Origin: Escherichia coli
GTDB lineage: Bacteria > Pseudomonadota > Gammaproteobacteria > Enterobacterales > Enterobacteriaceae
Assembly (NCBI RefSeq): GCF_003334405.1
Contig: NZ_QOWM01000001.1
Reading direction: 5' to 3' (one strand)
DNA: 64,000 nt
The notes under the pieces are model-generated. The model was not told where the DNA came from. It searched no databases and worked only from the letters and a program-made list of their open reading frames with translations. Made by a program: the position numbers and the translations under genes. Position 1 is the first letter of the stretch. Every line of letters begins with the position of its first letter. Of the stretch, positions 8,792 to 22,261 are shown in pieces.

Positions 8792-10045
8792 ATGTTAAAG
8801 CGTGAAATGAACATTGCCGATTATGATGCCGAACTGTGGCAGGCTATGGAGCAGGAAAAAGTACGTCAGGAAGAGCACATCGAACTGATCGCCTCCGAAA
8901 ACTACACCAGCCCGCGCGTAATGCAGGCGCAGGGTTCTCAGCTGACCAACAAATATGCTGAAGGTTATCCGGGCAAACGCTACTACGGCGGTTGCGAGTA
9001 TGTTGATATCGTTGAACAACTGGCGATCGATCGTGCGAAAGAACTGTTCGGCGCTGACTACGCTAACGTCCAGCCGCACTCCGGCTCCCAGGCTAACTTT
9101 GCGGTCTACACCGCGCTGCTGGAACCAGGTGATACCGTTCTGGGTATGAACCTGGCGCATGGCGGTCACCTGACTCACGGTTCTCCGGTTAACTTCTCCG
9201 GTAAACTGTACAACATCGTTCCTTACGGTATCGATGCTACCGGTCATATCGACTACGCCGATCTGGAAAAACAAGCCAAAGAACACAAGCCGAAAATGAT
9301 TATCGGTGGTTTCTCTGCATATTCCGGCGTGGTGGACTGGGCGAAAATGCGTGAAATCGCTGACAGCATCGGTGCTTACCTGTTCGTTGATATGGCGCAC
9401 GTTGCGGGCCTGGTTGCTGCTGGCGTCTACCCGAACCCGGTTCCTCATGCTCACGTTGTTACTACCACCACTCACAAAACCCTGGCGGGTCCGCGCGGCG
9501 GCCTGATCCTGGCGAAAGGTGGTAGCGAAGAGCTGTACAAAAAACTGAACTCTGCCGTTTTCCCTGGTGGTCAGGGCGGTCCGTTGATGCACGTAATCGC
9601 CGGTAAAGCGGTTGCTCTGAAAGAAGCGATGGAGCCTGAGTTCAAAACTTACCAGCAGCAGGTCGCTAAAAACGCTAAAGCGATGGTAGAAGTGTTCCTC
9701 GAGCGCGGCTACAAAGTGGTTTCCGGCGGCACTGATAACCACCTGTTCCTGGTTGATCTGGTTGATAAAAACCTGACCGGTAAAGAAGCAGACGCCGCTC
9801 TGGGCCGTGCTAACATCACCGTCAACAAAAACAGCGTACCGAACGATCCGAAGAGCCCGTTTGTGACCTCCGGTATTCGTGTAGGTACTCCGGCGATTAC
9901 CCGTCGCGGCTTTAAAGAAGCCGAAGCGAAAGAACTGGCTGGCTGGATGTGTGACGTGCTGGACAGCATCAATGATGAAGCCGTTATCGAGCGCATCAAA
10001 GGTAAAGTTCTCGACATCTGCGCACGTTACCCGGTTTACGCATAA
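8792..10045 (+). CDS. glyA: Serine hydroxymethyltransferase
   Basis: 417 aa from the ATG at 8792 ([22 protein letters not shown]...). PLP-lysine region [14 protein letters not shown]. Confidence 0.95.
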
Positions 10046-10083
10046 GCGAAACGGTGATTTGCTGTCAATGTGCTCGTTGTTCA

Positions 10084-10184
10084 TGCCGGATGCGGCGTGA
10101 ACGCCTTATCCGGCCTACAAAACTTTGCAAATTCAATATATTGCAATCTCCGTGTAGGCCTGATAAGCGTAGCGCATCAGGCAA
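10084..10184. repeat. BIME (pair of inverted REP palindromes) downstream of glyA
   Basis: TGCCGGATGCGGCGTGAACGCCTTATCCGGCCTACAAA ... TGTAGGCCTGATAAGCGTAGCGCATCAGGCA. Near-identical to the BIME at 39140-39243. Confidence 0.85.
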
Positions 10185-10242
10185 TTTTTCGTTTATGATC
10201 ATCAAGGCTTCCTTCGGGAAGCCTTTCTACGTTATCGCGCCA

Positions 10243-11436
10243 TCAAATCTGTCGTAACTGCGCCTCAACATACAAATAGCCAATTCCCAGCACCTGTTGT
10301 GCGCGGCTTAATTGCCCAAAGCCAATTTGCGTCGCTTTCACGCTCGGTCCTTCGTCGCGGTCGAACGGGTTAAATCCTGTCTGGCGAATAATAGTATTAA
10401 GCCAGTTCTCACCAAAGGCACAACTGCGACCGTACAACCAAATCTGATTAATATTGAGGATGTTGAGGAAGTTATACAGACTCAAACCAATGGCATTGGC
10501 AGAGCGATCAACCCAGCTGGTGATCCACGGTTCTCCACTTTGCCAGGCAGCGATTAACTGCGCTGTAGTCAGTTTTTCAGGATCAAGTTGAGTACTAACC
10601 GGTTGTGATTTTAGCCATACCCGCGCCTGTTTTTTTAATGCGCTTAACGAGGCGACGGTTTCCAGGCAGCCATAACGTCCACAGTCGCAGACGACGCCAT
10701 CCGGATTAACGATGGTGTGACCAATCTGTCCGCTACCATACAAACTGCCGCGATAAATTTGCTCGTTAATCACGAACGACGAGCCAATGCCGTAATCAAC
10801 GTTGATCACGCAGAAATCCCGTTCCTGCGAATTATTTTGCCATTTCTCCGCCAGCGCCAGCATCACGCAGTCATTATCGACCATCACCCGAATGCCGAGC
10901 TTCTCTTCCAGCAGATATTTCACCTCCACCGGCGTTGTCCACGGCGCTTGCGGCATGGTTTGCGACACGCCGGTCACAGGATCAACCTGACCGTGGATTG
11001 CCAACGCCAGGTTGATGGTATGGTCCGGCCACAATTTACGGTGGCGATGCCAGCATTTTTCGATTTCGGACAGCAGCGCCTGCGGCGTCGGTGCATCAAT
11101 CTGTAAATACTCAAATTCACCTTTCGGACTTAAACAAGCATTAGCAACCTGACACTCAATACTGGTGGGCGTCACGTTCAGGCACAGCGTCCAGTCACCT
11201 TCCGGCGCAATCAGCCATGTACCGCTACTATGCCCGCGCGTCTGGCTTTCATCGTCAATATTCACCACCCGTTTTTCGCTTTCCAGTTCCTGCAAAATAT
11301 TACTGACTGCCGGAATCGAAATTTGCGCCAGCCGGGCCAGCGTTGATTTATTGGCGCGCTTTTGCCGGTACAGCAGTTCCAGAATCACGCATTTGTTATG
11401 GTGGCGAATCTGTTGATTATTAATGCAGGCTCTCAT
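10243..11436 (-). CDS. yphH: ROK-family (NagC/XylR-like) transcriptional regulator YphH
   Basis: 397 aa from the ATG at 11436 (a GTG two codons upstream is also possible). N-terminal HTH, ROK sugar-kinase-like fold with Cys/His zinc motif (CDCGRYGCLE). Divergent from the yph transporter genes. Confidence 0.8.
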   Translation of the reverse strand: MRACINNQQIRHHNKCVILELLYRQKRANKSTLARLAQISIPAVSNILQELESEKRVVNIDDESQTRGHSSGTWLIAPEGDWTLCLNVTPTSIECQVANACLSPKGEFEYLQIDAPTPQALLSEIEKCWHRHRKLWPDHTINLALAIHGQVDPVTGVSQTMPQAPWTTPVEVKYLLEEKLGIRVMVDNDCVMLALAEKWQNNSQERDFCVINVDYGIGSSFVINEQIYRGSLYGSGQIGHTIVNPDGVVCDCGRYGCLETVASLSALKKQARVWLKSQPVSTQLDPEKLTTAQLIAAWQSGEPWITSWVDRSANAIGLSLYNFLNILNINQIWLYGRSCAFGENWLNTIIRQTGFNPFDRDEGPSVKATQIGFGQLSRAQQVLGIGYLYVEAQLRQI

Positions 11437-11553
11437 CTTCACTAAACCTTGTTTAGTTAATTGCGTGATTATTCCGCGAAAACATTGCCAGATTGTTCAA
11501 TACACTGCCACAAATCTTTTAATTCAGTATGTCTTGTTAATATTGAGGGCACC

Positions 11554-14500
11554 ATGACTCCAGTAAAAGTGTGGCAAGAGCGCGTTGAGATCCCGACCTA
11601 TGAAACCGGGCCGCAGGATATACATCCCATGTTCCTGGAAAATCGCGTTTATCAGGGATCGTCCGGCGCGGTTTATCCCTACGGCGTGACCGATACGCTG
11701 AGCGAGCAGAAAACCCTGAAATCCTGGCAGGCGGTGTGGCTGGAAAACGACTACATCAAAGTGATGATCCTGCCGGAACTGGGCGGTCGGGTGCATCGCG
11801 CGTGGGATAAAGTGAAACAGCGCGATTTTGTTTATCACAATGAAGTCATTAAACCTGCGCTGGTGGGGCTGCTGGGGCCGTGGATTTCCGGTGGGATTGA
11901 GTTTAACTGGCCGCAACATCATCGCCCGACCACCTTTATGCCCGTTGATTTCACCCTCGAAGCCCATGAAGACGGTGCACAGACGGTGTGGGTAGGCGAA
12001 ACGGAGCCGATGCATGGTTTACAGGTGATGACAGGTTTCACCCTGCGCCCTGACCGGGCGGCGCTGGAAATCGCCAGCCGCGTCTATAACGGGAACGCCA
12101 CGCCGCGTCATTTCTTGTGGTGGGCCAACCCGGCAGTGAAAGGGGGGGAAGGGCATCAGAGCGTCTTCCCGCCGGATGTAACGGCGGTGTTTGATCACGG
12201 CAAACGGGCCGTCTCCGCTTTCCCCATCGCTACCGGCACTTACTACAAAGTGGACTACTCCGCTGGAGTGGACATTTCTCGCTATAAAAATGTGCCTGTT
12301 CCAACCTCATATATGGCCGAAAAATCGCAGTACGATTTTGTCGGCGCGTGGTGTCACGATGAAGATGGCGGTTTGCTGCACGTTGCCAACCACCATATTG
12401 CGCCAGGTAAAAAACAGTGGAGTTGGGGACACAGTGAATTTGGCCAGGCGTGGGATAAGAGTCTGACCGACAATAACGGCCCGTATATCGAACTGATGAC
12501 CGGTATTTTTGCCGATAACCAGCCCGATTTTACCTGGCTTGATGCTTACGAAGAGAAGCGTTTTGAGCAGTATTTCCTGCCTTATCATTCTTTGGGCATG
12601 GTGCAAAATGCCTCCCGCGATGCGGTGATAAAACTCCAGCGTAGTAAGCGGGGGATTGAGTGGGGGCTGTATGCCATCTCTCCGTTGAACGGATACCGCC
12701 TGGCGATCCGCGAAATCGGTAAATGCAACGCGTTACTTGATGATGCCGTGGCACTGATGCCTGCGACCGCCATCCAGGGCGTGTTGCACGGTATCAATCC
12801 TGAAAGGCTGACCATTGAGCTCTCCGATGCCGACGGCAATATTGTACTGAGTTATCAGGAACATCAGCCGCAAGCGTTGCCGTTACCGGACGTCGCCAAA
12901 GCGCCACTGGCAGCACAAGACATTACCAGTACAGATGAAGCCTGGTTTATCGGTCAGCATCTGGAGCAATATCATCACGCCAGCCGTTCACCGTTCGATT
13001 ACTACCTGCGCGGCGTGGCGCTGGACCCGCTGGATTATCGCTGTAACCTGGCGCTGGCGATGCTGGAATATAACCGCGCAGATTTCCCGCAAGCGGTGGC
13101 GTATGCCACTCAGGCTCTGAAACGCGCACATTCGCTGAACAAAAATCCGCAGTGCGGACAGGCGAGTTTGATTCGCGCCAGTGCTTACGAACGTCAGGGA
13201 CAATATCAACAAGCCGAAGAGGATTTCTGGCGTGCGGTCTGGAGCGGCAACAGCAAAGCCGGTGGCTATTATGGCCTGGCACGACTGGCGGCGCGTAATG
13301 GTAACTTCGACGCTGGTCTGGATTTTTGCCAACAAAGTCTTCGCGCCTGCCCAACCAATCAGGAAGTGCTTTGCCTGCATAATCTGCTGCTGGTGTTAAG
13401 TGGTCGTCAGGACAACGCGCGTGTGCAGCGCGAGAAACTGCTGCGCGATTATCCGCTGAACGCCACTCTGTGGTGGCTGAACTGGTTCGATGGTCGTAGC
13501 GAATCAGCTCTCGCGCAGTGGCGCGGTCTGTGTCAGGGACGCGACGTTAACGCCCTGATGACCGCCGGGCAACTGATTAACTGGGGAATGCCCACCCTGG
13601 CGGCAGAGATGCTGAACGCACTGGACTGCCAGCGCACGCTGCCGCTTTACCTGCAAGCCAGCTTGCTGCCGAAAGCCGAACGTGGCGAACTGGTCGCAAA
13701 AGCCATTGATGTCTTCCCGCAGTTTGTCCGTTTCCCGAATACGCTGGAAGAAGTGGCGGCGCTGGAGAGTATTGAAGAGTGCTGGTTTGCTCGCCATTTA
13801 CTAGCTTGCTTCTACTACAACAAACGTAGCTACAACAAAGCCATTGCCTTTTGGCAACGTTGCGTAGAGATGTCGCCGGAGTTTGCCGACGGCTGGCGCG
13901 GGTTAGCGATCCATGCGTGGAATAAGCAACACGATTATGAGCTGGCCGCGCGTTATCTTGATAATGCTTATCAGCTTGCGCCGCAGGATGCACGTCTGCT
14001 TTTCGAACGGGATTTGCTGGATAAGTTAAGTGGAGCCACACCGGAGAAACGACTGGCGCGTCTGGAAAATAATCTGGAAATTGCGCTGAAACGCGACGAC
14101 ATGACCGCAGAACTGCTCAATTTGTGGCATCTCACGGGTCAGGCAGACAAAGCGGCGGACATTCTCGCCACGCGCAAATTCCACCCGTGGGAAGGCGGGG
14201 AAGGGAAGGTCACCAGTCAGTTTATCCTCAACCAGTTATTACGCGCCTGGCAGCATCTTGATGCCAGACAGCCGCAGCAGGCCTGCGAACTGCTTCATGC
14301 CGCGCTGCATTATCCGGAGAATTTAAGCGAAGGCCGTTTACCGGGGCAAACTGATAACGACATCTGGTTCTGGCAGGCGATATGCGCCAACGCGCAGGGC
14401 GATGAAACTGAAGCGACGCGTTGTTTACGTCTGGCGGCGACCGGCGATCGCACTATTAACATTCACAGTTATTACAACGATCAGCCGGTTGATTATCTCT

Positions 14501-14835
14501 TCTGGCAAGGGATGGCGCTGCGACTGCTGGGCGAACAACAAACCGCACAGCAACTGTTTAGTGAAATGAAACAGTGGGCGCAAGAGATGGCGAAAACCAG
14601 TATCGAAGCGGATTTCTTTGCCGTCTCGCAACCTGACTTGTTGTCGCTGTATGGCGATTTACAACAGCAGCATAAAGAAAAATGCCTGATGGTGGCGATG
14701 CTGGCGTCCGCGGGACTCGGGGAGGTTGCGCAATATGAGTCTGCTCGCGCTGAATTGACGGCGATTAATCCGGCTTGGCCGAAAGCGGCATTATTCACCA
14801 CCGTGATGCCTTTTATTTTTAACCGCGTTCACTAA
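11554..14835 (+). CDS. yphG: Large uncharacterised protein YphG (TPR-containing)
   Basis: 1093 aa from the ATG at 11554 (MTPVKVWQERVEIPTYETG...), preceded by GAGGG. Track ORF from 11461 is a 5' extension of the same frame. Confidence 0.8.
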   Translation: MTPVKVWQERVEIPTYETGPQDIHPMFLENRVYQGSSGAVYPYGVTDTLSEQKTLKSWQAVWLENDYIKVMILPELGGRVHRAWDKVKQRDFVYHNEVIKPALVGLLGPWISGGIEFNWPQHHRPTTFMPVDFTLEAHEDGAQTVWVGETEPMHGLQVMTGFTLRPDRAALEIASRVYNGNATPRHFLWWANPAVKGGEGHQSVFPPDVTAVFDHGKRAVSAFPIATGTYYKVDYSAGVDISRYKNVPVPTSYMAEKSQYDFVGAWCHDEDGGLLHVANHHIAPGKKQWSWGHSEFGQAWDKSLTDNNGPYIELMTGIFADNQPDFTWLDAYEEKRFEQYFLPYHSLGMVQNASRDAVIKLQRSKRGIEWGLYAISPLNGYRLAIREIGKCNALLDDAVALMPATAIQGVLHGINPERLTIELSDADGNIVLSYQEHQPQALPLPDVAKAPLAAQDITSTDEAWFIGQHLEQYHHASRSPFDYYLRGVALDPLDYRCNLALAMLEYNRADFPQAVAYATQALKRAHSLNKNPQCGQASLIRASAYERQGQYQQAEEDFWRAVWSGNSKAGGYYGLARLAARNGNFDAGLDFCQQSLRACPTNQEVLCLHNLLLVLSGRQDNARVQREKLLRDYPLNATLWWLNWFDGRSESALAQWRGLCQGRDVNALMTAGQLINWGMPTLAAEMLNALDCQRTLPLYLQASLLPKAERGELVAKAIDVFPQFVRFPNTLEEVAALESIEECWFARHLLACFYYNKRSYNKAIAFWQRCVEMSPEFADGWRGLAIHAWNKQHDYELAARYLDNAYQLAPQDARLLFERDLLDKLSGATPEKRLARLENNLEIALKRDDMTAELLNLWHLTGQADKAADILATRKFHPWEGGEGKVTSQFILNQLLRAWQHLDARQPQQACELLHAALHYPENLSEGRLPGQTDNDIWFWQAICANAQGDETEATRCLRLAATGDRTINIHSYYNDQPVDYLFWQGMALRLLGEQQTAQQLFSEMKQWAQEMAKTSIEADFFAVSQPDLLSLYGDLQQQHKEKCLMVAMLASAGLGEVAQYESARAELTAINPAWPKAALFTTVMPFIFNRVH

Positions 14836-14931
14836 ACCCTATTAACTGTAATATTTGAGCGGCACGCGCTGCCGCTCATCACAAAATAATTAGAATAAGC
14901 CGTTGTTAATAAAAACCCTACAGGAGGCTCT

Positions 14932-15915
14932 ATGCCTACAAAAATGAGAACAACCCGTAATCTATTATTAATGGCTACGCTATTAGGTAGCGCACTATTT
15001 GCCAGGGCTGCGGAAAAAGAAATGACCATTGGCGCAATATACCTTGATACTCAGGGATACTACGCTGGAGTGCGTCAGGGCGTTCAGGATGCGGCAAAAG
15101 ATTCCTCAGTACAAGTTCAGTTAATAGAAACTAACGCCCAGGGTGATATTTCGAAAGAAAGTACCTTTGTTGATACCCTCGTGGCGCGTAATGTCGATGC
15201 CATTATTTTATCGGCAGTGTCTGAAAATGGCAGTAGCCGTACCGTTCGTCGCGCCAGTGAAGCGGGCATTCCGGTGATTTGCTACAACACCTGTATTAAT
15301 CAAAAGGGGGTCGATAAATATGTCTCGGCGTATCTGGTCGCCGATCCGCTGGAATTTGGTAAAAAACTGGGTAACGCTGCCGCTGATTATTTTATTGCCA
15401 ATAAAATTGACCAGCCGAAAATTGCCGTCATCAATTGCGAAGCCTTTGAAGTTTGTGTGCAGCGACGTAAAGGATTTGAAGAAGTTTTAAAATCCCGCGT
15501 TCCCGGCGCGCAAATTGTCGCTAATCAGGAAGGGACTGTTTTAGATAAAGCGATTTCCGTTGGTGAAAAACTAATTATCTCCACGCCGGATCTCAACGCC
15601 ATTATGGGGGAATCGGGCGGTGCGACACTCGGCGCGGTAAAAGCGGTACGTAATCAAAATCAGGCCGGAAAAATTGCTGTTTTCGGTTCGGATATGACAA
15701 CCGAAATTGCTCAGGAGCTGGAAAACAATCAGGTGCTGAAAGCGGTAGTGGATATTTCCGGTAAGAAAATGGGCAATGCTGTTTTCGCGCAAACATTGAA
15801 GGTTATCAATAAACAAGCCGACGGTGAAAAAGTGATTCAGGTGCCTATCGATCTCTATACCAAAACGGAAGACGGTAAACAGTGGCTGGCAACGCACGTT
15901 GATGGTCTGCCCTAA
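14932..15915 (+). CDS. yphF: ABC transporter periplasmic sugar-binding protein YphF
   Basis: 327 aa, signal peptide (MPTKMRTTRNLLLMATLLGSALFARA), periplasmic-binding-protein fold. RBS AGGAGG upstream. Confidence 0.85.
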   Translation: MPTKMRTTRNLLLMATLLGSALFARAAEKEMTIGAIYLDTQGYYAGVRQGVQDAAKDSSVQVQLIETNAQGDISKESTFVDTLVARNVDAIILSAVSENGSSRTVRRASEAGIPVICYNTCINQKGVDKYVSAYLVADPLEFGKKLGNAAADYFIANKIDQPKIAVINCEAFEVCVQRRKGFEEVLKSRVPGAQIVANQEGTVLDKAISVGEKLIISTPDLNAIMGESGGATLGAVKAVRNQNQAGKIAVFGSDMTTEIAQELENNQVLKAVVDISGKKMGNAVFAQTLKVINKQADGEKVIQVPIDLYTKTEDGKQWLATHVDGLP

Positions 15916-15937
15916 TCGCTGATTCGCAGAGGTCCCT

Positions 15938-17449
15938 ATGTTCACGGCAACAGAGGCAGTCCCGGTAGCAAAAGTGGTGGCAGGAAATAAGCGTTATCCC
16001 GGCGTCGTTGCGCTGGATAACGTTAACTTCACGCTCAATAAAGGCGAAGTTCGTGCGCTGTTAGGTAAAAACGGCGCGGGCAAATCGACTCTCATTCGAA
16101 TGCTTACCGGCAGCGAACGCCCGGATAGCGGTGATATCTGGATTGGCGAGACGCGACTGGAAGGTGACGAAGCTACGCTGACTCGCCGTGCCGCTGAACT
16201 GGGGGTGCGCGCGGTTTATCAGGAGTTAAGTCTGGTGGAAGGGCTGACAGTGGCGGAAAACCTCTGCCTCGGTCAGTGGCCCCGCCGCAACGGCATGATT
16301 GATTACCTGCAAATGGCGCAGGATGCCCAACGTTGCTTACAGGCGCTGGGCGTTGACGTTAGTCCTGAACAACTTGTTTCAACGCTAAGCCCGGCGCAAA
16401 AGCAGCTGGTGGAAATTGCGCGGGTGATGAAGGGCGAGCCGCGCGTGGTCATTCTTGATGAACCTACCAGTTCGCTTGCGAGTGCGGAAGTTGAACTGGT
16501 GATCAGCGCGGTGAAAAAGATGTCGGCACTGGGCGTGGCGGTGATTTATGTCAGCCACCGGATGGAAGAAATTCGCCGCATTGCCTCCTGTGCCACCGTT
16601 ATGCGCGATGGTCAGGTGGCGGGCGATGTGATGCTCGAAAACACCTCCACGCATCATATTGTGTCGCTGATGCTCGGGCGCGATCACGTTGATATTGCGC
16701 CGGTAGCCCCTCAGGAAATTGTGGATCAGGCCGTGCTGGAAGTCCGTGCGTTACGCCATAAGCCCAAGCTGGAGGATATCAGTTTTACGCTACGTCGTGG
16801 CGAAGTGCTCGGCATTGCTGGTCTGCTGGGGGCAGGGCGCAGTGAATTGCTGAAGGCGATTGTTGGGCTGGAGGAGTATGAACAGGGCGAAATTGTTATC
16901 AACGGCGAGAAAATCACGCGCCCCGATTACGGCGACATGCTGAAACGCGGCATTGGCTATACGCCAGAAAACCGCAAAGAAGCGGGGATCATTCCCTGGT
17001 TGGGCGTTGACGAAAATACAGTGCTGACCAATCGGCAAAAAATCAGCGCCAACGGTGTGCTGCAATGGTCCACCATCCGCCGCCTGACCGAAGAGGTGAT
17101 GCAGCGGATGACGGTCAAGGCCGCCAGTAGCGAAACACCCATCGGCACGCTTTCTGGTGGCAATCAGCAAAAAGTGGTGATCGGTCGTTGGGTCTATGCT
17201 GCCAGCCAGATTTTGTTGCTCGACGAGCCAACGCGCGGCGTCGATATCGAAGCCAAACAGCAGATTTACCGTATTGTCCGTGAGCTGGCTGCCGAAGGAA
17301 AAAGCGTGGTGTTTATCTCCAGTGAAGTGGAGGAGTTGCCGCTGGTGTGTGACCGCATCCTGTTATTACAGCACGGCACGTTCTCGCAGGAGTTTCACGC
17401 TCCGGTCAATGTGGATGAGCTGATGTCCGCCATTCTGTCTGTGCACTGA
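15938..17449 (+). CDS. yphE: ABC transporter ATP-binding protein YphE (duplicated ATPase cassette)
   Basis: 503 aa, two Walker A motifs (GKNGAGKST and GLLGAGRSEL) and two signature motifs (LSPAQKQ, LSGGNQQK). Confidence 0.88.
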   Translation: MFTATEAVPVAKVVAGNKRYPGVVALDNVNFTLNKGEVRALLGKNGAGKSTLIRMLTGSERPDSGDIWIGETRLEGDEATLTRRAAELGVRAVYQELSLVEGLTVAENLCLGQWPRRNGMIDYLQMAQDAQRCLQALGVDVSPEQLVSTLSPAQKQLVEIARVMKGEPRVVILDEPTSSLASAEVELVISAVKKMSALGVAVIYVSHRMEEIRRIASCATVMRDGQVAGDVMLENTSTHHIVSLMLGRDHVDIAPVAPQEIVDQAVLEVRALRHKPKLEDISFTLRRGEVLGIAGLLGAGRSELLKAIVGLEEYEQGEIVINGEKITRPDYGDMLKRGIGYTPENRKEAGIIPWLGVDENTVLTNRQKISANGVLQWSTIRRLTEEVMQRMTVKAASSETPIGTLSGGNQQKVVIGRWVYAASQILLLDEPTRGVDIEAKQQIYRIVRELAAEGKSVVFISSEVEELPLVCDRILLLQHGTFSQEFHAPVNVDELMSAILSVH

Positions 17450-17473
17450 TGAATTTTACCGAGGAACCTGAAG

Positions 17474-18472
17474 ATGTCTGCTTCGTCATTACCATTGCCG
17501 CAGGGCAAGAGCGTCTCGCTCAAACAATTTGTCAGTCGCCATATTAATGAGATCGGTTTGCTGGTGGTGATTGCCATTCTTTATCTGGTCTTCTCCCTGA
17601 ACGCGCCTGGCTTTATCTCATTGAATAACCAGATGAACGTGCTGCGCGATGCCGCCACCATTGGGATTGCCGCCTGGGCGATGACGCTGATTATTATCTC
17701 CGGTGAAATTGATGTCAGCGTTGGGCCGATGGTGGCTTTTGTCTCGGTGTGCCTGGCATTTTTGCTGCAATTTGAAGTTCCGCTGGCGGTGGCGTGCCTG
17801 CTGGTGTTGCTGTTAGGCGCGCTGATGGGAACGCTGGCCGGGGTGCTGCGCGGCGTGTTTAATGTACCAAGTTTCGTTGCCACACTGGGGCTGTGGAGCG
17901 CCCTGCGCGGAATGGGGCTGTTTATGACGAACGCACTGCCAGTGCCGATTGATGAAAACGAGGTGCTGGACTGGCTGGGCGGACAATTTCTCGGTGTGCC
18001 GGTATCCGCGCTGATCATGATTGTGTTGTTTGCGCTGTTTGTGTTCATCAGCCGCAAAACCGCCTTCGGGCGCTCGGTTTTTGCCGTTGGCGGTAATGCT
18101 ACGGCGGCGCAGTTGTGCGGCATCAACGTTCGTCGGGTGCGCATTCTTATCTTTACCCTTTCGGGATTATTAGCGGCGGTGACCGGCATTTTGTTGGCGG
18201 CGCGCCTCGGTTCTGGTAACGCAGGTGCCGCAAACGGTCTGGAGTTTGACGTCATCGCCGCGGTCGTGGTCGGCGGTACGGCACTTTCCGGCGGTCGCGG
18301 TTCCCTGTTCGGTACATTGCTTGGTGTGCTGGTGATTACGCTAATCGGTAACGGTCTGGTGCTGCTCGGTATTAACTCCTTTTTCCAGCAGGTGGTACGC
18401 GGCGTCATCATCGTGGTGGCGGTGCTGGCGAATATCTTGCTGACCCAGCGAAGCAGTAAAGCGAAACGCTAA
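17474..18472 (+). CDS. yphD: ABC transporter permease YphD
   Basis: 332 aa, multi-spanning hydrophobic protein of the ribose/xylose-type permease family. Confidence 0.85.
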   Translation: MSASSLPLPQGKSVSLKQFVSRHINEIGLLVVIAILYLVFSLNAPGFISLNNQMNVLRDAATIGIAAWAMTLIIISGEIDVSVGPMVAFVSVCLAFLLQFEVPLAVACLLVLLLGALMGTLAGVLRGVFNVPSFVATLGLWSALRGMGLFMTNALPVPIDENEVLDWLGGQFLGVPVSALIMIVLFALFVFISRKTAFGRSVFAVGGNATAAQLCGINVRRVRILIFTLSGLLAAVTGILLAARLGSGNAGAANGLEFDVIAAVVVGGTALSGGRGSLFGTLLGVLVITLIGNGLVLLGINSFFQQVVRGVIIVVAVLANILLTQRSSKAKR

Positions 18473-18537
18473 ACCTTAACGCCCCTGGCGCGGGTGCGGC
18501 AGGGATGAAAATTAATCGTATTGTTAATGAGGGATTT

Positions 18538-19599
18538 ATGAAAACGATGCTGGCAGCTTATTTACCAGGAAATTCGACCGTCGATCTGCGGGAAGTTGCG
18601 GTGCCGACGCCGGGGATTAACCAGGTACTGATCAAAATGAAATCCTCCGGGATTTGCGGAAGCGATGTCCACTATATCTATCATCAACACCGTGCCACAG
18701 CGGCGGCACCCGATAAACCGTTATACCAGGGCTTTATCAACGGTCATGAACCGTGCGGGCAGATTGTGGCGATGGGGCAAGGCTGCCGCCATTTTAAAGA
18801 GGGCGACCGCGTGCTGGTGTATCACATTTCTGGCTGTGGTTTTTGCCCGAACTGCCGTCGCGGTTTTCCTATTTCTTGTACTGGCGAAGGAAAAGCGGCT
18901 TACGGCTGGCAGCGTGACGGCGGTCATGCCGAATACTTGCTGGCGGAAGAAAAAGATCTGATCCTCCTGCCGGATGCGCTGAGCTACGAAGATGGTGCGT
19001 TTATCAGTTGCGGCGTTGGTACAGCGTATGAAGGAATTTTGCGCGGCGAAGTTTCCGGCAGTGATAACGTGCTGGTGGTCGGTCTGGGGCCAGTCGGCAT
19101 GATGGCGATGATGCTGGCGAAAGGTCGCGGTGCAAAACGGATCATCGGCGTTGATATGCTGCCGGAACGTCTGGCGATGGCAAAACAGTTAGGGGTGATG
19201 GATCACGGCTATTTAGCAACCACCGAAGGTCTGCCGCAGATTATCGCCGAACTCACCCACGGTGGCGCGGATGTTGCGCTCGATTGTTCCGGTAATGCCG
19301 CAGGTCGCTTGCTGGCACTGCAATCCACCGCTGACTGGGGACGGGTGGTTTACATTGGTGAAACCGGAAAAGTGGAATTCGAGGTCAGCGCCGATCTGAT
19401 GCACCATCAACGGCGGATTATCGGCTCCTGGGTGACCAGTCTGTTCCATATGGAAAAATGCGCCCATGATCTGACGGACTGGAAGCTGTGGCCGCGTAAC
19501 GCCATTACCCATCGCTTCTCGCTGGAACAGGCAGGTGATGCCTATGCGCTGATGGCGAGCGGCAAATGCGGGAAAGTTGTGATTAACTTCCCGGATTAA
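18538..19599 (+). CDS. yphC: Zn-dependent alcohol/polyol dehydrogenase family protein YphC
   Basis: 353 aa from the ATG at 18538 (MKTMLAAYLPG...). GHEPCG zinc motif and GLGPVG Rossmann motif. Confidence 0.82.
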   Translation: MKTMLAAYLPGNSTVDLREVAVPTPGINQVLIKMKSSGICGSDVHYIYHQHRATAAAPDKPLYQGFINGHEPCGQIVAMGQGCRHFKEGDRVLVYHISGCGFCPNCRRGFPISCTGEGKAAYGWQRDGGHAEYLLAEEKDLILLPDALSYEDGAFISCGVGTAYEGILRGEVSGSDNVLVVGLGPVGMMAMMLAKGRGAKRIIGVDMLPERLAMAKQLGVMDHGYLATTEGLPQIIAELTHGGADVALDCSGNAAGRLLALQSTADWGRVVYIGETGKVEFEVSADLMHHQRRIIGSWVTSLFHMEKCAHDLTDWKLWPRNAITHRFSLEQAGDAYALMASGKCGKVVINFPD

Positions 19600-19610
19600 G
19601 GAGTTAGCGG

Positions 19611-20483
19611 ATGACCATCTATACCTTATCCCACGGGTCGCTAAAGCTGGACGTTTCTGACCAGGGCGGCGTAATCGAAGGCTTCTGGCGCGATACGACG
19701 CCGCTCTTACGTCCTGGTAAAAAAAGCGGTGTGGCAACCGATGCCTCATGTTTTCCGCTGGTGCCATTTGCAAACCGGGTGAGCGGCAATCGTTTTGTCT
19801 GGCAGGGGCGTGAGTATCAACTGCAACCGAATGTTGAGTGGGATGCGCACTATCTACACGGCGATGGCTGGCTGGGCGAGTGGCAATGTGTCTCGCACAG
19901 CGATGATAGTTTGTGTCTGGTGTATGAACATCGCAGCGGTGTCTATCACTATCGGGTAAGTCAGGCGTTTCATTTAACGGCGGATACGCTGACGGTGACG
20001 CTCTCTGTCACCAATCAAGGGGCAGAGACGCTGCCATTTGGTACCGGCTGGCATCCTTATTTTCCGTTGTCGCCGCAAACGCGGATTCAGGCACAGGCGA
20101 GCGGTTACTGGCTGGAGCGGGAGCAGTGGCTGGCGGGTGAGTTTTGCGAGCAGCTACCGCAGGAACTGGATTTTAACCAGCCCGCGCCGTTGCCGCGCCA
20201 GTGGGTGAACAATGGTTTTGCCGGATGGAATGGTCAGGCCCGCATCGAGCAGCCGCAGGAAGGTTATGCCATCATCATGGAAACGACGCCACCTGCACCG
20301 TGTTATTTCATCTTTGTTTCCGACCCTGCGTTTGATAAAGGATATGCGTTTGATTTCTTCTGTCTGGAACCGATGAGCCATGCGCCGGATGATCATCATC
20401 GCCCGGAAGGGGGTGATCTCATTGCGCTAGCACCAGGGGAATCAACAACTTCAGAGATGTCGTTGCGGGTAGAGTGGCTGTAA
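19611..20483 (+). CDS. yphB: Aldose 1-epimerase-like protein YphB
   Basis: 290 aa, mutarotase-like protein, start 12 nt after the yphC stop. Confidence 0.8.
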   Translation: MTIYTLSHGSLKLDVSDQGGVIEGFWRDTTPLLRPGKKSGVATDASCFPLVPFANRVSGNRFVWQGREYQLQPNVEWDAHYLHGDGWLGEWQCVSHSDDSLCLVYEHRSGVYHYRVSQAFHLTADTLTVTLSVTNQGAETLPFGTGWHPYFPLSPQTRIQAQASGYWLEREQWLAGEFCEQLPQELDFNQPAPLPRQWVNNGFAGWNGQARIEQPQEGYAIIMETTPPAPCYFIFVSDPAFDKGYAFDFFCLEPMSHAPDDHHRPEGGDLIALAPGESTTSEMSLRVEWL

Positions 20484-20489
20484 TTTATT

Positions 20490-20525
20490 AAATGCCGGAT
20501 AAGGCGTTCACGCCGCATCCGGCAT
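20490..20525. repeat. REP palindrome downstream of yphB
   Basis: AATGCCGGATAAGGCGTTCACGCCGCATCCGGCAT. Confidence 0.8.
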
Positions 20526-20530
20526 CTTTC

Positions 20531-20953
20531 CTAACGCCGATCGAGAGAAATTGCCCCCGGCCCGGTAATTGCCAATAGCAAGAACGCGCCAGCGATACTG
20601 ACATTCTTCCAGAAATTAATCATATTTGGCCCAACCGCATCGCCGGTCATATCCCAGTAATGGTGACCAATCACCGCCGTACCCAGCGTGTAGAAAATAA
20701 ACAGCACCGCCAGCGGACGGGTGAAAAAGCCAAGCACGATTAATATCGCGGCGGGCACTTCCATAACTACCGCAATAATCGCTGCCAGCATCGGCATTGG
20801 CGCGCCCAACGAGGCCATATATTGGACCGTACCGTCAAAGCCCATCATTTTGGGAAAACCAAAAATAATGAAAATTAAGACCACGGCGATACGGGCAATT
20901 AATAACAAAACGGGGCGGGCAGCTCCAAAATCAAAATAACGTAGTGTGTTCAT
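20531..20953 (-). CDS. yphA: DoxX-family inner membrane protein YphA
   Basis: 140 aa from the ATG at 20953 ([18 protein letters not shown]...). Four predicted TM helices. Confidence 0.8.
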
Positions 20954-21049
20954 AACCAATCCCTTTGCAAGATAATGTGATTTAAACGTAATACACACTC
21001 TTGCACCTCGCCACGCCCCAGGCATTGAGATATTCGCTAATTATCCTGG

Positions 21050-22261
<1,212 letters not shown>

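Follow-up and report, generated by a model that had tools for sequence, protein, structure and literature searches.

The described systems closest to the locus reported here are the galactose genes mglBAC, galP and galM, the D-allose and ribose importers alsBAC and rbsACB, the ROK-family regulators NagC and Mlc of Escherichia coli and XylR of Bacillus, and the sulfoquinovose operon with its mutarotase YihR. The yph genes resemble parts of all of these, and they belong to the portion of the E. coli K-12 genome without an experimental function, their K-12 annotation reading 'putative' throughout. YphH was described in 2014 as the third, uncharacterised ROK repressor of E. coli (PMC4288165) and in 2022 its function was again given as unknown (PMC9308461). 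A 2023 review gives yphFED as a putative sugar ATP-binding cassette (ABC) transporter (PMC10305011), the structural-genomics structure of YphB has been used only as a template or structural reference, in work on the sulfoquinovose mutarotase (PMC5902678), and DUF5107, the Pfam family matched by YphG, is given as of 'unknown function' in the one searchable paper that mentions it (PMC8163842). Here, we analyze the eight genes yphH, yphG, yphF, yphE, yphD, yphC, yphB and yphA in a 64-kb stretch of E. coli contig NZ_QOWM01000001.1 (RefSeq assembly GCF_003334405.1; hereafter the window), in which they lie on the chromosome between glyA upstream and hcaD downstream. An earlier reading made from the letters alone (the sequence-only reading) had described them as a complete, single-operon and cryptic module for a carbohydrate or polyol. 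We find that yph is a catalogued y-gene cluster, largely as first described, for which the operon model and the roles of yphA and yphC need correction, and that it combines a widespread core with an inserted transport cassette.

Across Enterobacterales, Aeromonas, Bacteroidota and Firmicutes this core consists of a regulator, YphG, a monosaccharide transporter and a mutarotase. Five further genera carry a ROK gene divergent from yphG and a YphB orthologue on the contigs that encode YphG, with identities of 59–76% for YphH, 54–74% for YphG and 32–64% for YphB. Aeromonas, Serratia, Limnobaculum and Pectobacterium have one major facilitator superfamily (MFS) sugar porter instead of yphFEDC, and YphC is absent; the porter clears the cut-off for the sugar-porter subfamily, with XylE as its nearest match. 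The E. coli arrangement is also found in Klebsiella. Budvicia and an Enterobacter show the order ROK regulator, YphG, sugar-binding protein, ATPase, permease, Zn-dependent dehydrogenase, YphB and MFS porter, which is an insertion intermediate with the ABC/dehydrogenase cassette set into the older arrangement. Hence, the layout in other genera identifies regulator, YphG, transporter and YphB as the ancient unit and yphFEDC as an add-on, a cassette that in some Enterobacterales (Budvicia, Escherichia, Klebsiella and an Enterobacter) was set between yphG and yphB and in Escherichia and Klebsiella replaced the ancestral MFS sugar porter.

YphG relatives are numerous: a scan of 1.84 billion representative proteins returned 5842, with 1152 at E <1e-30, and most of the best 150 listed keep the full length of about 1100 residues. 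A further scan, limited to a single genome for each species, yielded at least 598 loci, of which the best-scoring 80 were kept, spanning Enterobacterales, Aeromonas, Photobacterium, Bacteroidota and Firmicutes. Neighboring open reading frames (ORFs) were called by a simple heuristic, clustered with BLAST within 7 kb and named from NCBIfam and Pfam. Among the 85 loci that encode a YphG homologue, the approximate counts are 58 for a monosaccharide transporter (MFS sugar porter or CUT2 ABC importer), 62 for a regulator of the AraC or ROK type and 30 for a YphB- or GalM-type mutarotase; GalM takes the place of YphB in 11 loci and passes its subfamily cut-off.

A further new observation is that distant YphG homologues adjoin relatives of glycoside hydrolase family 2 (GH2) beta-galactosidases, an alpha-galactosidase relative and GalM. 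GH2-like glycosidases occur in 30/85 loci; the best models for the main GH2 clusters are the exo-beta-1,4-galactosidases BT4151 and BT4156, with scores under the cut-offs, and for a smaller GH2-like cluster the match is confined to the N-terminal part of a model for exo-beta-D-glucosaminidase. Other neighbors are a relative of retaining alpha-galactosidases (592 bits; cut-off 800) and a protein that weakly resembles beta-L-arabinopyranosidases (81 bits; cut-off 1100), and SusC/SusD pairs recur, as do sulfatases in marine Flavobacteriia. NCBIfam scans of the binding proteins beside distant YphG homologues assigned no substrate. No kinase, isomerase or aldolase recurs among the 85 loci, and none is encoded in the yph block itself, so the yph genes cannot be called a complete catabolic module. 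In this picture, YphG would handle a monosaccharide-sized, probably galactose-configured product, with further metabolism encoded elsewhere.

Six loci from marine Flavobacteriia share a fixed string of sulfatase, MFS porter, an unannotated protein of ~240 residues, GH2 and YphG homologue, and five of the six then run on with sulfatases and a second GH2. This string suggests a link to sulfated algal galactans.

YphG itself had been read as a protein without a recognizable catalytic motif. It matches Pfam DUF5107 (PF17128) over residues 39–324 (E 3.1e-55) and TPR_16 (E 8.6e-07), which places it in a family combining DUF5107 with true TPRs. An AlphaFold2 (AF2) model from 47 diverse sequences, with a predicted local distance difference test (pLDDT) score of 93 and a predicted template modeling (pTM) score of 0.91, has an all-beta N-terminal domain, a small beta domain and about 30 helices. 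By a wide margin, the closest structural neighbors of the model are true mutarotases and not hydrolases or lyases; a Foldseek search with a separate N-terminal model gave the same ranking, and comparison with solved mutarotases places the predicted N-terminal domain in the aldose-1-epimerase fold superfamily. The structure prediction proposed as a check has delivered a confident model with a mutarotase-fold N-terminal domain. On this model, YphG would be a mutarotase-fold enzyme rather than a featureless protein.

In the 47-sequence alignment, which reaches down to 27% identity, E64, N65, E116, N179, E313 and E333 are invariant and H122, H123, R124, W189, W190, N192, D208, H215, D240, H276, K286, K287 and D325 are nearly so; the C-terminal motif FHPWEGGEG (876–883) is likewise nearly invariant. 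The conserved Glu, His and Asp residues sit in loops, and the motifs around E116/H123, H276 and E313 are common to YphG and PDB 5CD6. When the TPR part is left out, the conserved loops 24–40, 100–125 and 315–330 fall to pLDDT 51–62, a drop that may owe something as well to the shallower alignment behind the N-terminal model. This hints that the TPR solenoid completes the putative active site of YphG.

YphH belongs to the ROK family: PF00480 is recorded on its orthologues and its translation contains the ROK zinc motif CDCGRYGCLE. It scores 111.6 bits against the NCBIfam model for NagC (residues 120–344; cut-off 650) and 106.5 bits against that for Mlc (residues 10–336; cut-off 530), and because both scores are far under the cut-offs it is neither. 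An alignment of the yphH–yphG intergenic region from six genera shows the palindrome ACTAAACcttGTTTAGT and the block TGCGTGAT kept from E. coli to Aeromonas. The block does not vary among the six genera and is matched exactly in 10 of 18 ROK-type regions, and a degenerate palindrome stands at a fixed position in 15 of the 18 divergent ROK–yphG regions; the 3.5 Mb of fetched loci hold 39 matches to the palindrome pattern in total, ROK–yphG sites included and both strands counted. Its half-sites follow A[CG]T[AT]AAC, and their changes are not compensatory, a pattern that favors recognition by a protein rather than an RNA stem. We regard the conserved palindrome beside the yphH start codon as a candidate that, judged from sequence, is probably the YphH operator.

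In the window, the degenerate operator pattern is confined to two places, 11441 and 14831–14847, the latter on the yphG stop codon. At this yphG–yphF junction a related motif and a hairpin recur in E. albertii, Klebsiella and Budvicia; the site of an Enterobacter is degenerate to a greater degree. The hairpin (RNA fold −22.1 kcal/mol, z −2.1) is not followed by a T-run and hence is not a typical terminator; the junction may be an internal regulated promoter or a 5' stabilizer. We infer that YphH would autoregulate and control yphG, and that the inserted cassette would have its own YphH-responsive start.

The locus is conserved and expressed. A search with window positions 10000–21100 matched 5478 records, and at least 80% of the block is present at 96–100% identity in 5370 of 5426 complete E. 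coli genomes. All eight reading frames are intact in the window and, without internal stops, in each of three genomes set against it (E. albertii, a divergent E. coli and Klebsiella). The ratio of nonsynonymous to synonymous substitution rates (dN/dS) of the eight genes is 0.003–0.066 against E. albertii and at most 0.11 against the divergent E. coli; against Klebsiella it is 0.025–0.096 for the six length-matched genes, yphH and yphB, which differ in length by one codon, being left out. All eight genes are under strong purifying selection. Reported yph expression follows a carbon-limitation pattern: YphF protein is 3.0–4.6-fold higher on levoglucosan than on fructose, alongside MalE, XylF, YtfQ and MglA (PMC8753852), yphEF are up-regulated in glucose-transporter mutants (PMC6786474), and yphD mRNA rises more than 3-fold after 24 h of starvation, with deletion of yphD lowering long-term ampicillin tolerance (PMC8597633). 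'Cryptic' is thus too strong a word, and the outcome that had been put forward as refuting a functional locus, a non-expressed remnant, is contradicted by the conservation and expression data. Levoglucosan was considered as the substrate because YphF rises on it, and was rejected: many carbon-limitation transporters rise together, and the strain needed a heterologous kinase.

A substrate assignment is absent from curated family models, annotation and the searchable literature. Against the June 2026 release of NCBIfam, all eight proteins score under every equivalog cut-off, and a literature search for the yph genes, DUF5107, 5CD6 and BDI_1685 found no functional study. A carbohydrate-type uptake and processing locus without an assigned substrate therefore remains the right general description, as the sequence-only reading had it, and its gene list and outer coordinates agree exactly with the ORF listing and the RefSeq and K-12 annotation. 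Its families also hold, namely a ROK regulator, a CUT2-type ABC importer with a two-cassette ATPase, a Zn-dependent medium-chain dehydrogenase/reductase (MDR), an aldose-1-epimerase and a DoxX protein.

The importer has the full CUT2 set of a Peripla_BP_4 binding protein, a two-cassette ATPase of ~500 residues and a BPD_transp_2 permease, and these Pfam families are recorded on the Klebsiella orthologues of YphFED, which are 78–92% identical. The best NCBIfam matches of YphF are AlsB, MglB, RbsB, LsrB and YtfQ, all far under the cut-offs (AlsB at the top with 64.6 bits; cut-off 335); no binding-protein score for a CUT2 equivalog of known substrate (Als, Mgl, Rbs, Ara, Xyl, Ytf, Lsr) was reached, and the best PDB match is 5hsg (E 6e-25). 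YphE scores 455 bits against AraG and 435 against XylG-type models, under the equivalog cut-offs. The 3' end of yphE is polymorphic in length, the gene of strain AVS0744 (locus L092, 7305–8834) being annotated 18 nt longer and ending 3 nt before yphD.

YphC is a Zn-dependent MDR by 24 NCBIfam MDR matches and the motifs GHEPCG, CGFCPNCRRGFPISC and GLGPVG, zinc-ligand motifs being evident in its translation. Its nearest NCBIfam models are L-threonine 3-dehydrogenase (171.4 bits; cut-off 380) and scyllo-inosose 3-dehydrogenase IolM (169 bits; cut-off 450), neither of which it reaches as an equivalog, and its nearest PDB entries are the alcohol dehydrogenase 4cpd and the xylitol dehydrogenase 7y9p. 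The start of yphC is ambiguous within 18505–18540: the K-12 start has the better Shine–Dalgarno sequence, GAGGGA, yet the 11 extra residues of the 364-residue PGAP version are kept in Klebsiella. In the O157 strain AR-0430 (locus L091, 8671–9765) yphC is annotated as a pseudogene with an internal stop, and the seven neighboring yph genes are intact. YphB is near-identical to PDB 3NRE and has the aldose 1-epimerase fold; its sole NCBIfam match is 40.8 bits (cut-off 251), so that it is not a GalM equivalog. Residues H83, H148 and E253 of YphB are invariant in six genera, and we take them, after the GalM literature, to be catalytic.

We lean towards reading yph as a YphH-controlled scavenging locus that imports a galactose-type monosaccharide or small glycoside, which two mutarotase-fold proteins process at the anomeric centre, the ABC/dehydrogenase cassette being optional. 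Gene content, folds, conservation, selection and the neighborhood statistics are established, and expression is known from the work of others; operator function, the enzymatic role of YphG and the substrate class are inferred parts of this reading. YphH would sit on the palindrome by its own start codon, and probably on another one ahead of yphF, and would be freed by an inducer sugar. The transporter would import a small glycoside or a compound the size of a monosaccharide, the latter most likely of galactose configuration; cytoplasmic YphG, its cleft apparently capped by the solenoid, would then work at or next to the anomeric carbon by interconverting ring forms or anomers, or by cleavage. 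YphB would equilibrate the product anomer for housekeeping pathways encoded elsewhere, and YphC would add polyol or sugar oxidation only in lineages with the ABC cassette. It is a tentative proposal, to which we give clearly less than even chances, that YphG founds a class of cytoplasmic enzymes in which an epimerase-fold domain completed by a TPR solenoid carries out an anomeric-centre step on a galactose-configured sugar or small galactoside, and which extends from E. coli to Bacteroidota and Firmicutes (>1100 sequence clusters) in routine coupling with GH2 galactosidases and sugar porters. That the yph locus is specific for galactose is rather doubtful.

Several results weigh against this interpretation. 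No growth phenotype, ligand or activity is reported for the locus. A profile comparison of DUF5107 with Aldose_epim was not significant (hhalign probability 0.3%), and a profile search of the PDB with YphG found 5cd6 only, so the mutarotase relationship is undetected by sequence. Profile comparisons intended to match residues of YphG to the catalytic residues of mutarotases gave no significant result either, and E313 and H123/H215 are candidates for the catalytic Glu and His by position along the chain only. The neighborhood counts are approximate because of the simple ORF heuristic and the use of the best 80 of at least 598 loci. The link to GH2 and other galactosidases comes from Bacteroidota, Firmicutes and one Photobacterium locus, and Enterobacterales orthologues have no glycosidase nearby. 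A plain galactose role would be redundant because E. coli already has galP, mglBAC and galM. Finally, a simple scan for the consensus of the cAMP receptor protein (CRP) in the yphH–yphG and yphG–yphF regions gave no convincing site; the carbon-limitation response may hence be indirect, and we do not claim direct CRP control.

The other explanations differ mainly in what they make of YphG and YphC. YphG might be a sugar-sensing scaffold and not an enzyme, its domain binding a sugar while the TPR solenoid contacts YphH/AraC or the transporter and tunes induction or uptake, broadly as MalT and TPR-type receptors work. We regard this as unlikely, given that the regulator switches between ROK and AraC while YphG stays, that some loci hold YphG and a GH2 enzyme alone and that invariant Glu, His, Asp, Asn and Trp residues in loops are typical of a catalytic sugar site; the pTM score also suggests one rigid body, not a free interaction arm. 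YphG could also be a new glycoside hydrolase, phosphorylase or lyase acting on a small glycoside or disaccharide (for example, glyceryl- or methyl-galactoside), with YphB mutarotating the released sugar as GalM does after beta-galactosidase. The ranking of the structural neighbors tells against this, CUT2 ABC importers and XylE-like MFS porters usually carry monosaccharides, and many related loci already encode GH2 glycosidases, which makes it distinctly unlikely.

The sequence-only reading had named a polyol as one possible substrate. In a polyol-centred system, YphFED would import the polyol and YphC would oxidize it to a sugar, with YphB and YphG as accessories. YphC is a complete Zn-dependent MDR with an NAD-type fold, no other protein of the block is as conserved (dN/dS 0.003 against E. 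albertii, 92% identity to Klebsiella) and its gene moves together with the ABC genes as a single cassette. However, a YphC-like gene is present in only 9/85 and ABC genes in 15/85 of the related loci, yphC has been interrupted in the O157 strain among intact neighbors, and YphG and YphB form an ancient, universally linked pair. An emphasis on the dehydrogenase and polyols is thus misplaced; polyol utilization may fit the cassette and is improbable for the whole locus. A decaying, non-functional remnant would match the lack of a reported growth phenotype or substrate and the yphC pseudogene of one strain, but the block is in 99% of complete E. coli genomes, its frames are intact in all four genomes compared with dN/dS of 0.003–0.11, and its protein and mRNA are detected and regulated (PMC8753852, PMC8597633, PMC6786474), so that we consider decay very improbable. 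The scavenging locus with YphG as a putative enzyme is the reading we retain.

The genes do not form one operon with spacings of 12–35 nt, as had been claimed (Table 1). The start codons of the divergent yphH and yphG are 117 nt apart, the conserved yphG–yphF gap is 96 nt, and tight gaps are confined to F–E (22 nt), E–D (24 nt), D–C (32 or 65 nt) and C–B (11 nt). A single-operon model fails because of this spacing and because yphH and yphA are on the minus strand.

Table 1 Features of the yph locus, in window positions
Feature	Position	Strand	Description
yphH	10243-11436	-	ROK-family transcription regulator, 397 aa; ORF reaches GTG at 11442
Candidate YphH operator	11441-11469	unassigned	Palindrome ACTAAACcttGTTTAGT 11441-11457, then block TGCGTGAT 11462-11469
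yphG	11554-14835	+	1093 aa, cytoplasmic; DUF5107, predicted mutarotase fold 1-345; small beta domain 357-435; TPR solenoid 460-1093
yphG-yphF junction	14831-14878	+	Operator-like ACTAAACCCTATTAACT 14831-14847; GC-rich hairpin 14856-14878
yphF	14932-15915	+	Periplasmic sugar-binding protein of CUT2-type ABC importer; signal peptide visible in sequence
yphE	15938-17449	+	ABC ATPase with two cassettes
yphD	17474-18472	+	RbsC/AraH-type permease
yphC	18538 (K-12 start, 353 aa) or 18505 (PGAP)-19599	+	Zn-dependent MDR dehydrogenase
yphB	19611-20483	+	Aldose-1-epimerase-fold protein, solved as PDB 3NRE
REP-type palindromic element	20490-20530	unassigned	Between convergent yphB and yphA; sub-threshold Rfam naRNA4 (REP-derived) match 20493-20562
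yphA	20531-20953	-	DoxX-family membrane protein; system membership doubtful

The membership of yphA is based on local synteny in Enterobacteriaceae alone. The gene, which is on the opposite strand, is convergent with yphB across a 47-nt gap filled by a repetitive extragenic palindromic (REP) element and follows hcaD at a distance of 96 nt on its downstream side. Its orthologue in Klebsiella (87% identity) is between glyA and yphH; in Klebsiella, Cedecea and Enterobacter sp. Ag1 it is on the other side of yphH, and elsewhere it is not near the cluster. DoxX genes are adjacent in 5/85 related loci, all from Enterobacteriaceae and on differing sides, and yphA is a doubtful member of the yph system. 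It is not a gene of the hca operon either: strain AVS0744, which has no hcaR–hcaD, keeps yphA adjoining hcaT. The hca operon beside yphA is a presence/absence polymorphism, the AVS0744 sequence running from yphA straight to hcaT. The neighboring hcaD (21050–22252) is an intact 400-residue ORF in the window and carries a frameshift flag in strain WP5-S17-ESBL-10. A CRP-like half-site, TAATGTGATTTAAACGTAATAC, is found at 20973–20994 in the 96-nt region upstream of yphA, and nothing comparable is found upstream of yphG.

REP- or bacterial interspersed mosaic element (BIME)-type palindromic repeats stand on both sides of the yphH–yphB block (10060–10200 and 20490–20562), with sub-threshold Rfam matches to naRNA4 and ES036, and account for 196,089 scattered BLAST places in E. 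coli genomes. Rfam gave only such sub-threshold REP-derived matches and no riboswitch or small RNA, and a generic promoter and terminator scan performed no better than on shuffled sequence. Two long antisense ORFs, at 8795–10084 (minus strand, 429 residues) opposite glyA and at 17581–18411 (minus strand, 276 residues) opposite yphD, are probably non-coding by-products of composition. PADLOC found no family match among the six proteins scanned (YphH, YphG, YphF, YphC, YphB and YphA), and on this result an anti-phage defence role was discarded.

YphH is the last uncharacterized ROK regulator of E. coli, and the question posed by the locus is now narrowed to a regulator with a candidate operator, a binding protein for which galactose-biased ligands can be chosen and YphG with named residues. 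If YphG is an enzyme, the widespread DUF5107 family, which in gut Bacteroidota and Firmicutes stands beside galactosidases, gains a function, and a gap is filled in models of galactan and galactoside use by gut and plant-associated bacteria. If it is not, the locus is an ordinary, low-priority sugar transporter operon.

Among the described systems, yph resembles mglBAC, galP and galM in joining a CUT2-type ABC importer or an MFS sugar porter to a mutarotase-fold enzyme, and MglB is among the best YphF matches. However, its regulator is of the ROK or AraC and not the GalR/GalS type, Leloir enzymes are unlinked, YphG is extra, as is YphC in E. coli, and YphB and YphF are far under the cut-offs for GalM and MglB. 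With alsBAC and rbsACB it shares a binding protein, a fused double ATPase and an RbsC-type permease, AlsB being the top NCBIfam match of YphF and RbsC or AraH that of YphD, but its scores are far under the equivalog cut-offs, and it lacks a linked kinase or epimerase from the allose and ribose pathways.

Like NagC, Mlc and XylR, YphH has an N-terminal DNA-binding part, a ROK sugar-binding domain and a Zn motif, is divergent from the genes that it presumably controls and has a palindromic candidate operator. The operators of NagC and Mlc are AT-rich, and the YphH half-site appears unlike them. YphH also forms a long branch of its own, and its linker motif differs (PMC4288165). The sole PDB relative of YphG by sequence, 5CD6 (BDI_1685 of Parabacteroides distasonis, a structural-genomics entry named 'TPR-domain containing protein'), is 21% identical and, at 580 against 1093 residues, has a shorter solenoid and probably no FHPWEGGEG region. 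YphB is encoded inside a dedicated sugar-utilization locus, as is the sulfoquinovose mutarotase YihR, but whereas the sulfoquinovose operon encodes a whole pathway, yph has no downstream enzymes and instead two mutarotase-fold proteins, one of them fused to TPRs.

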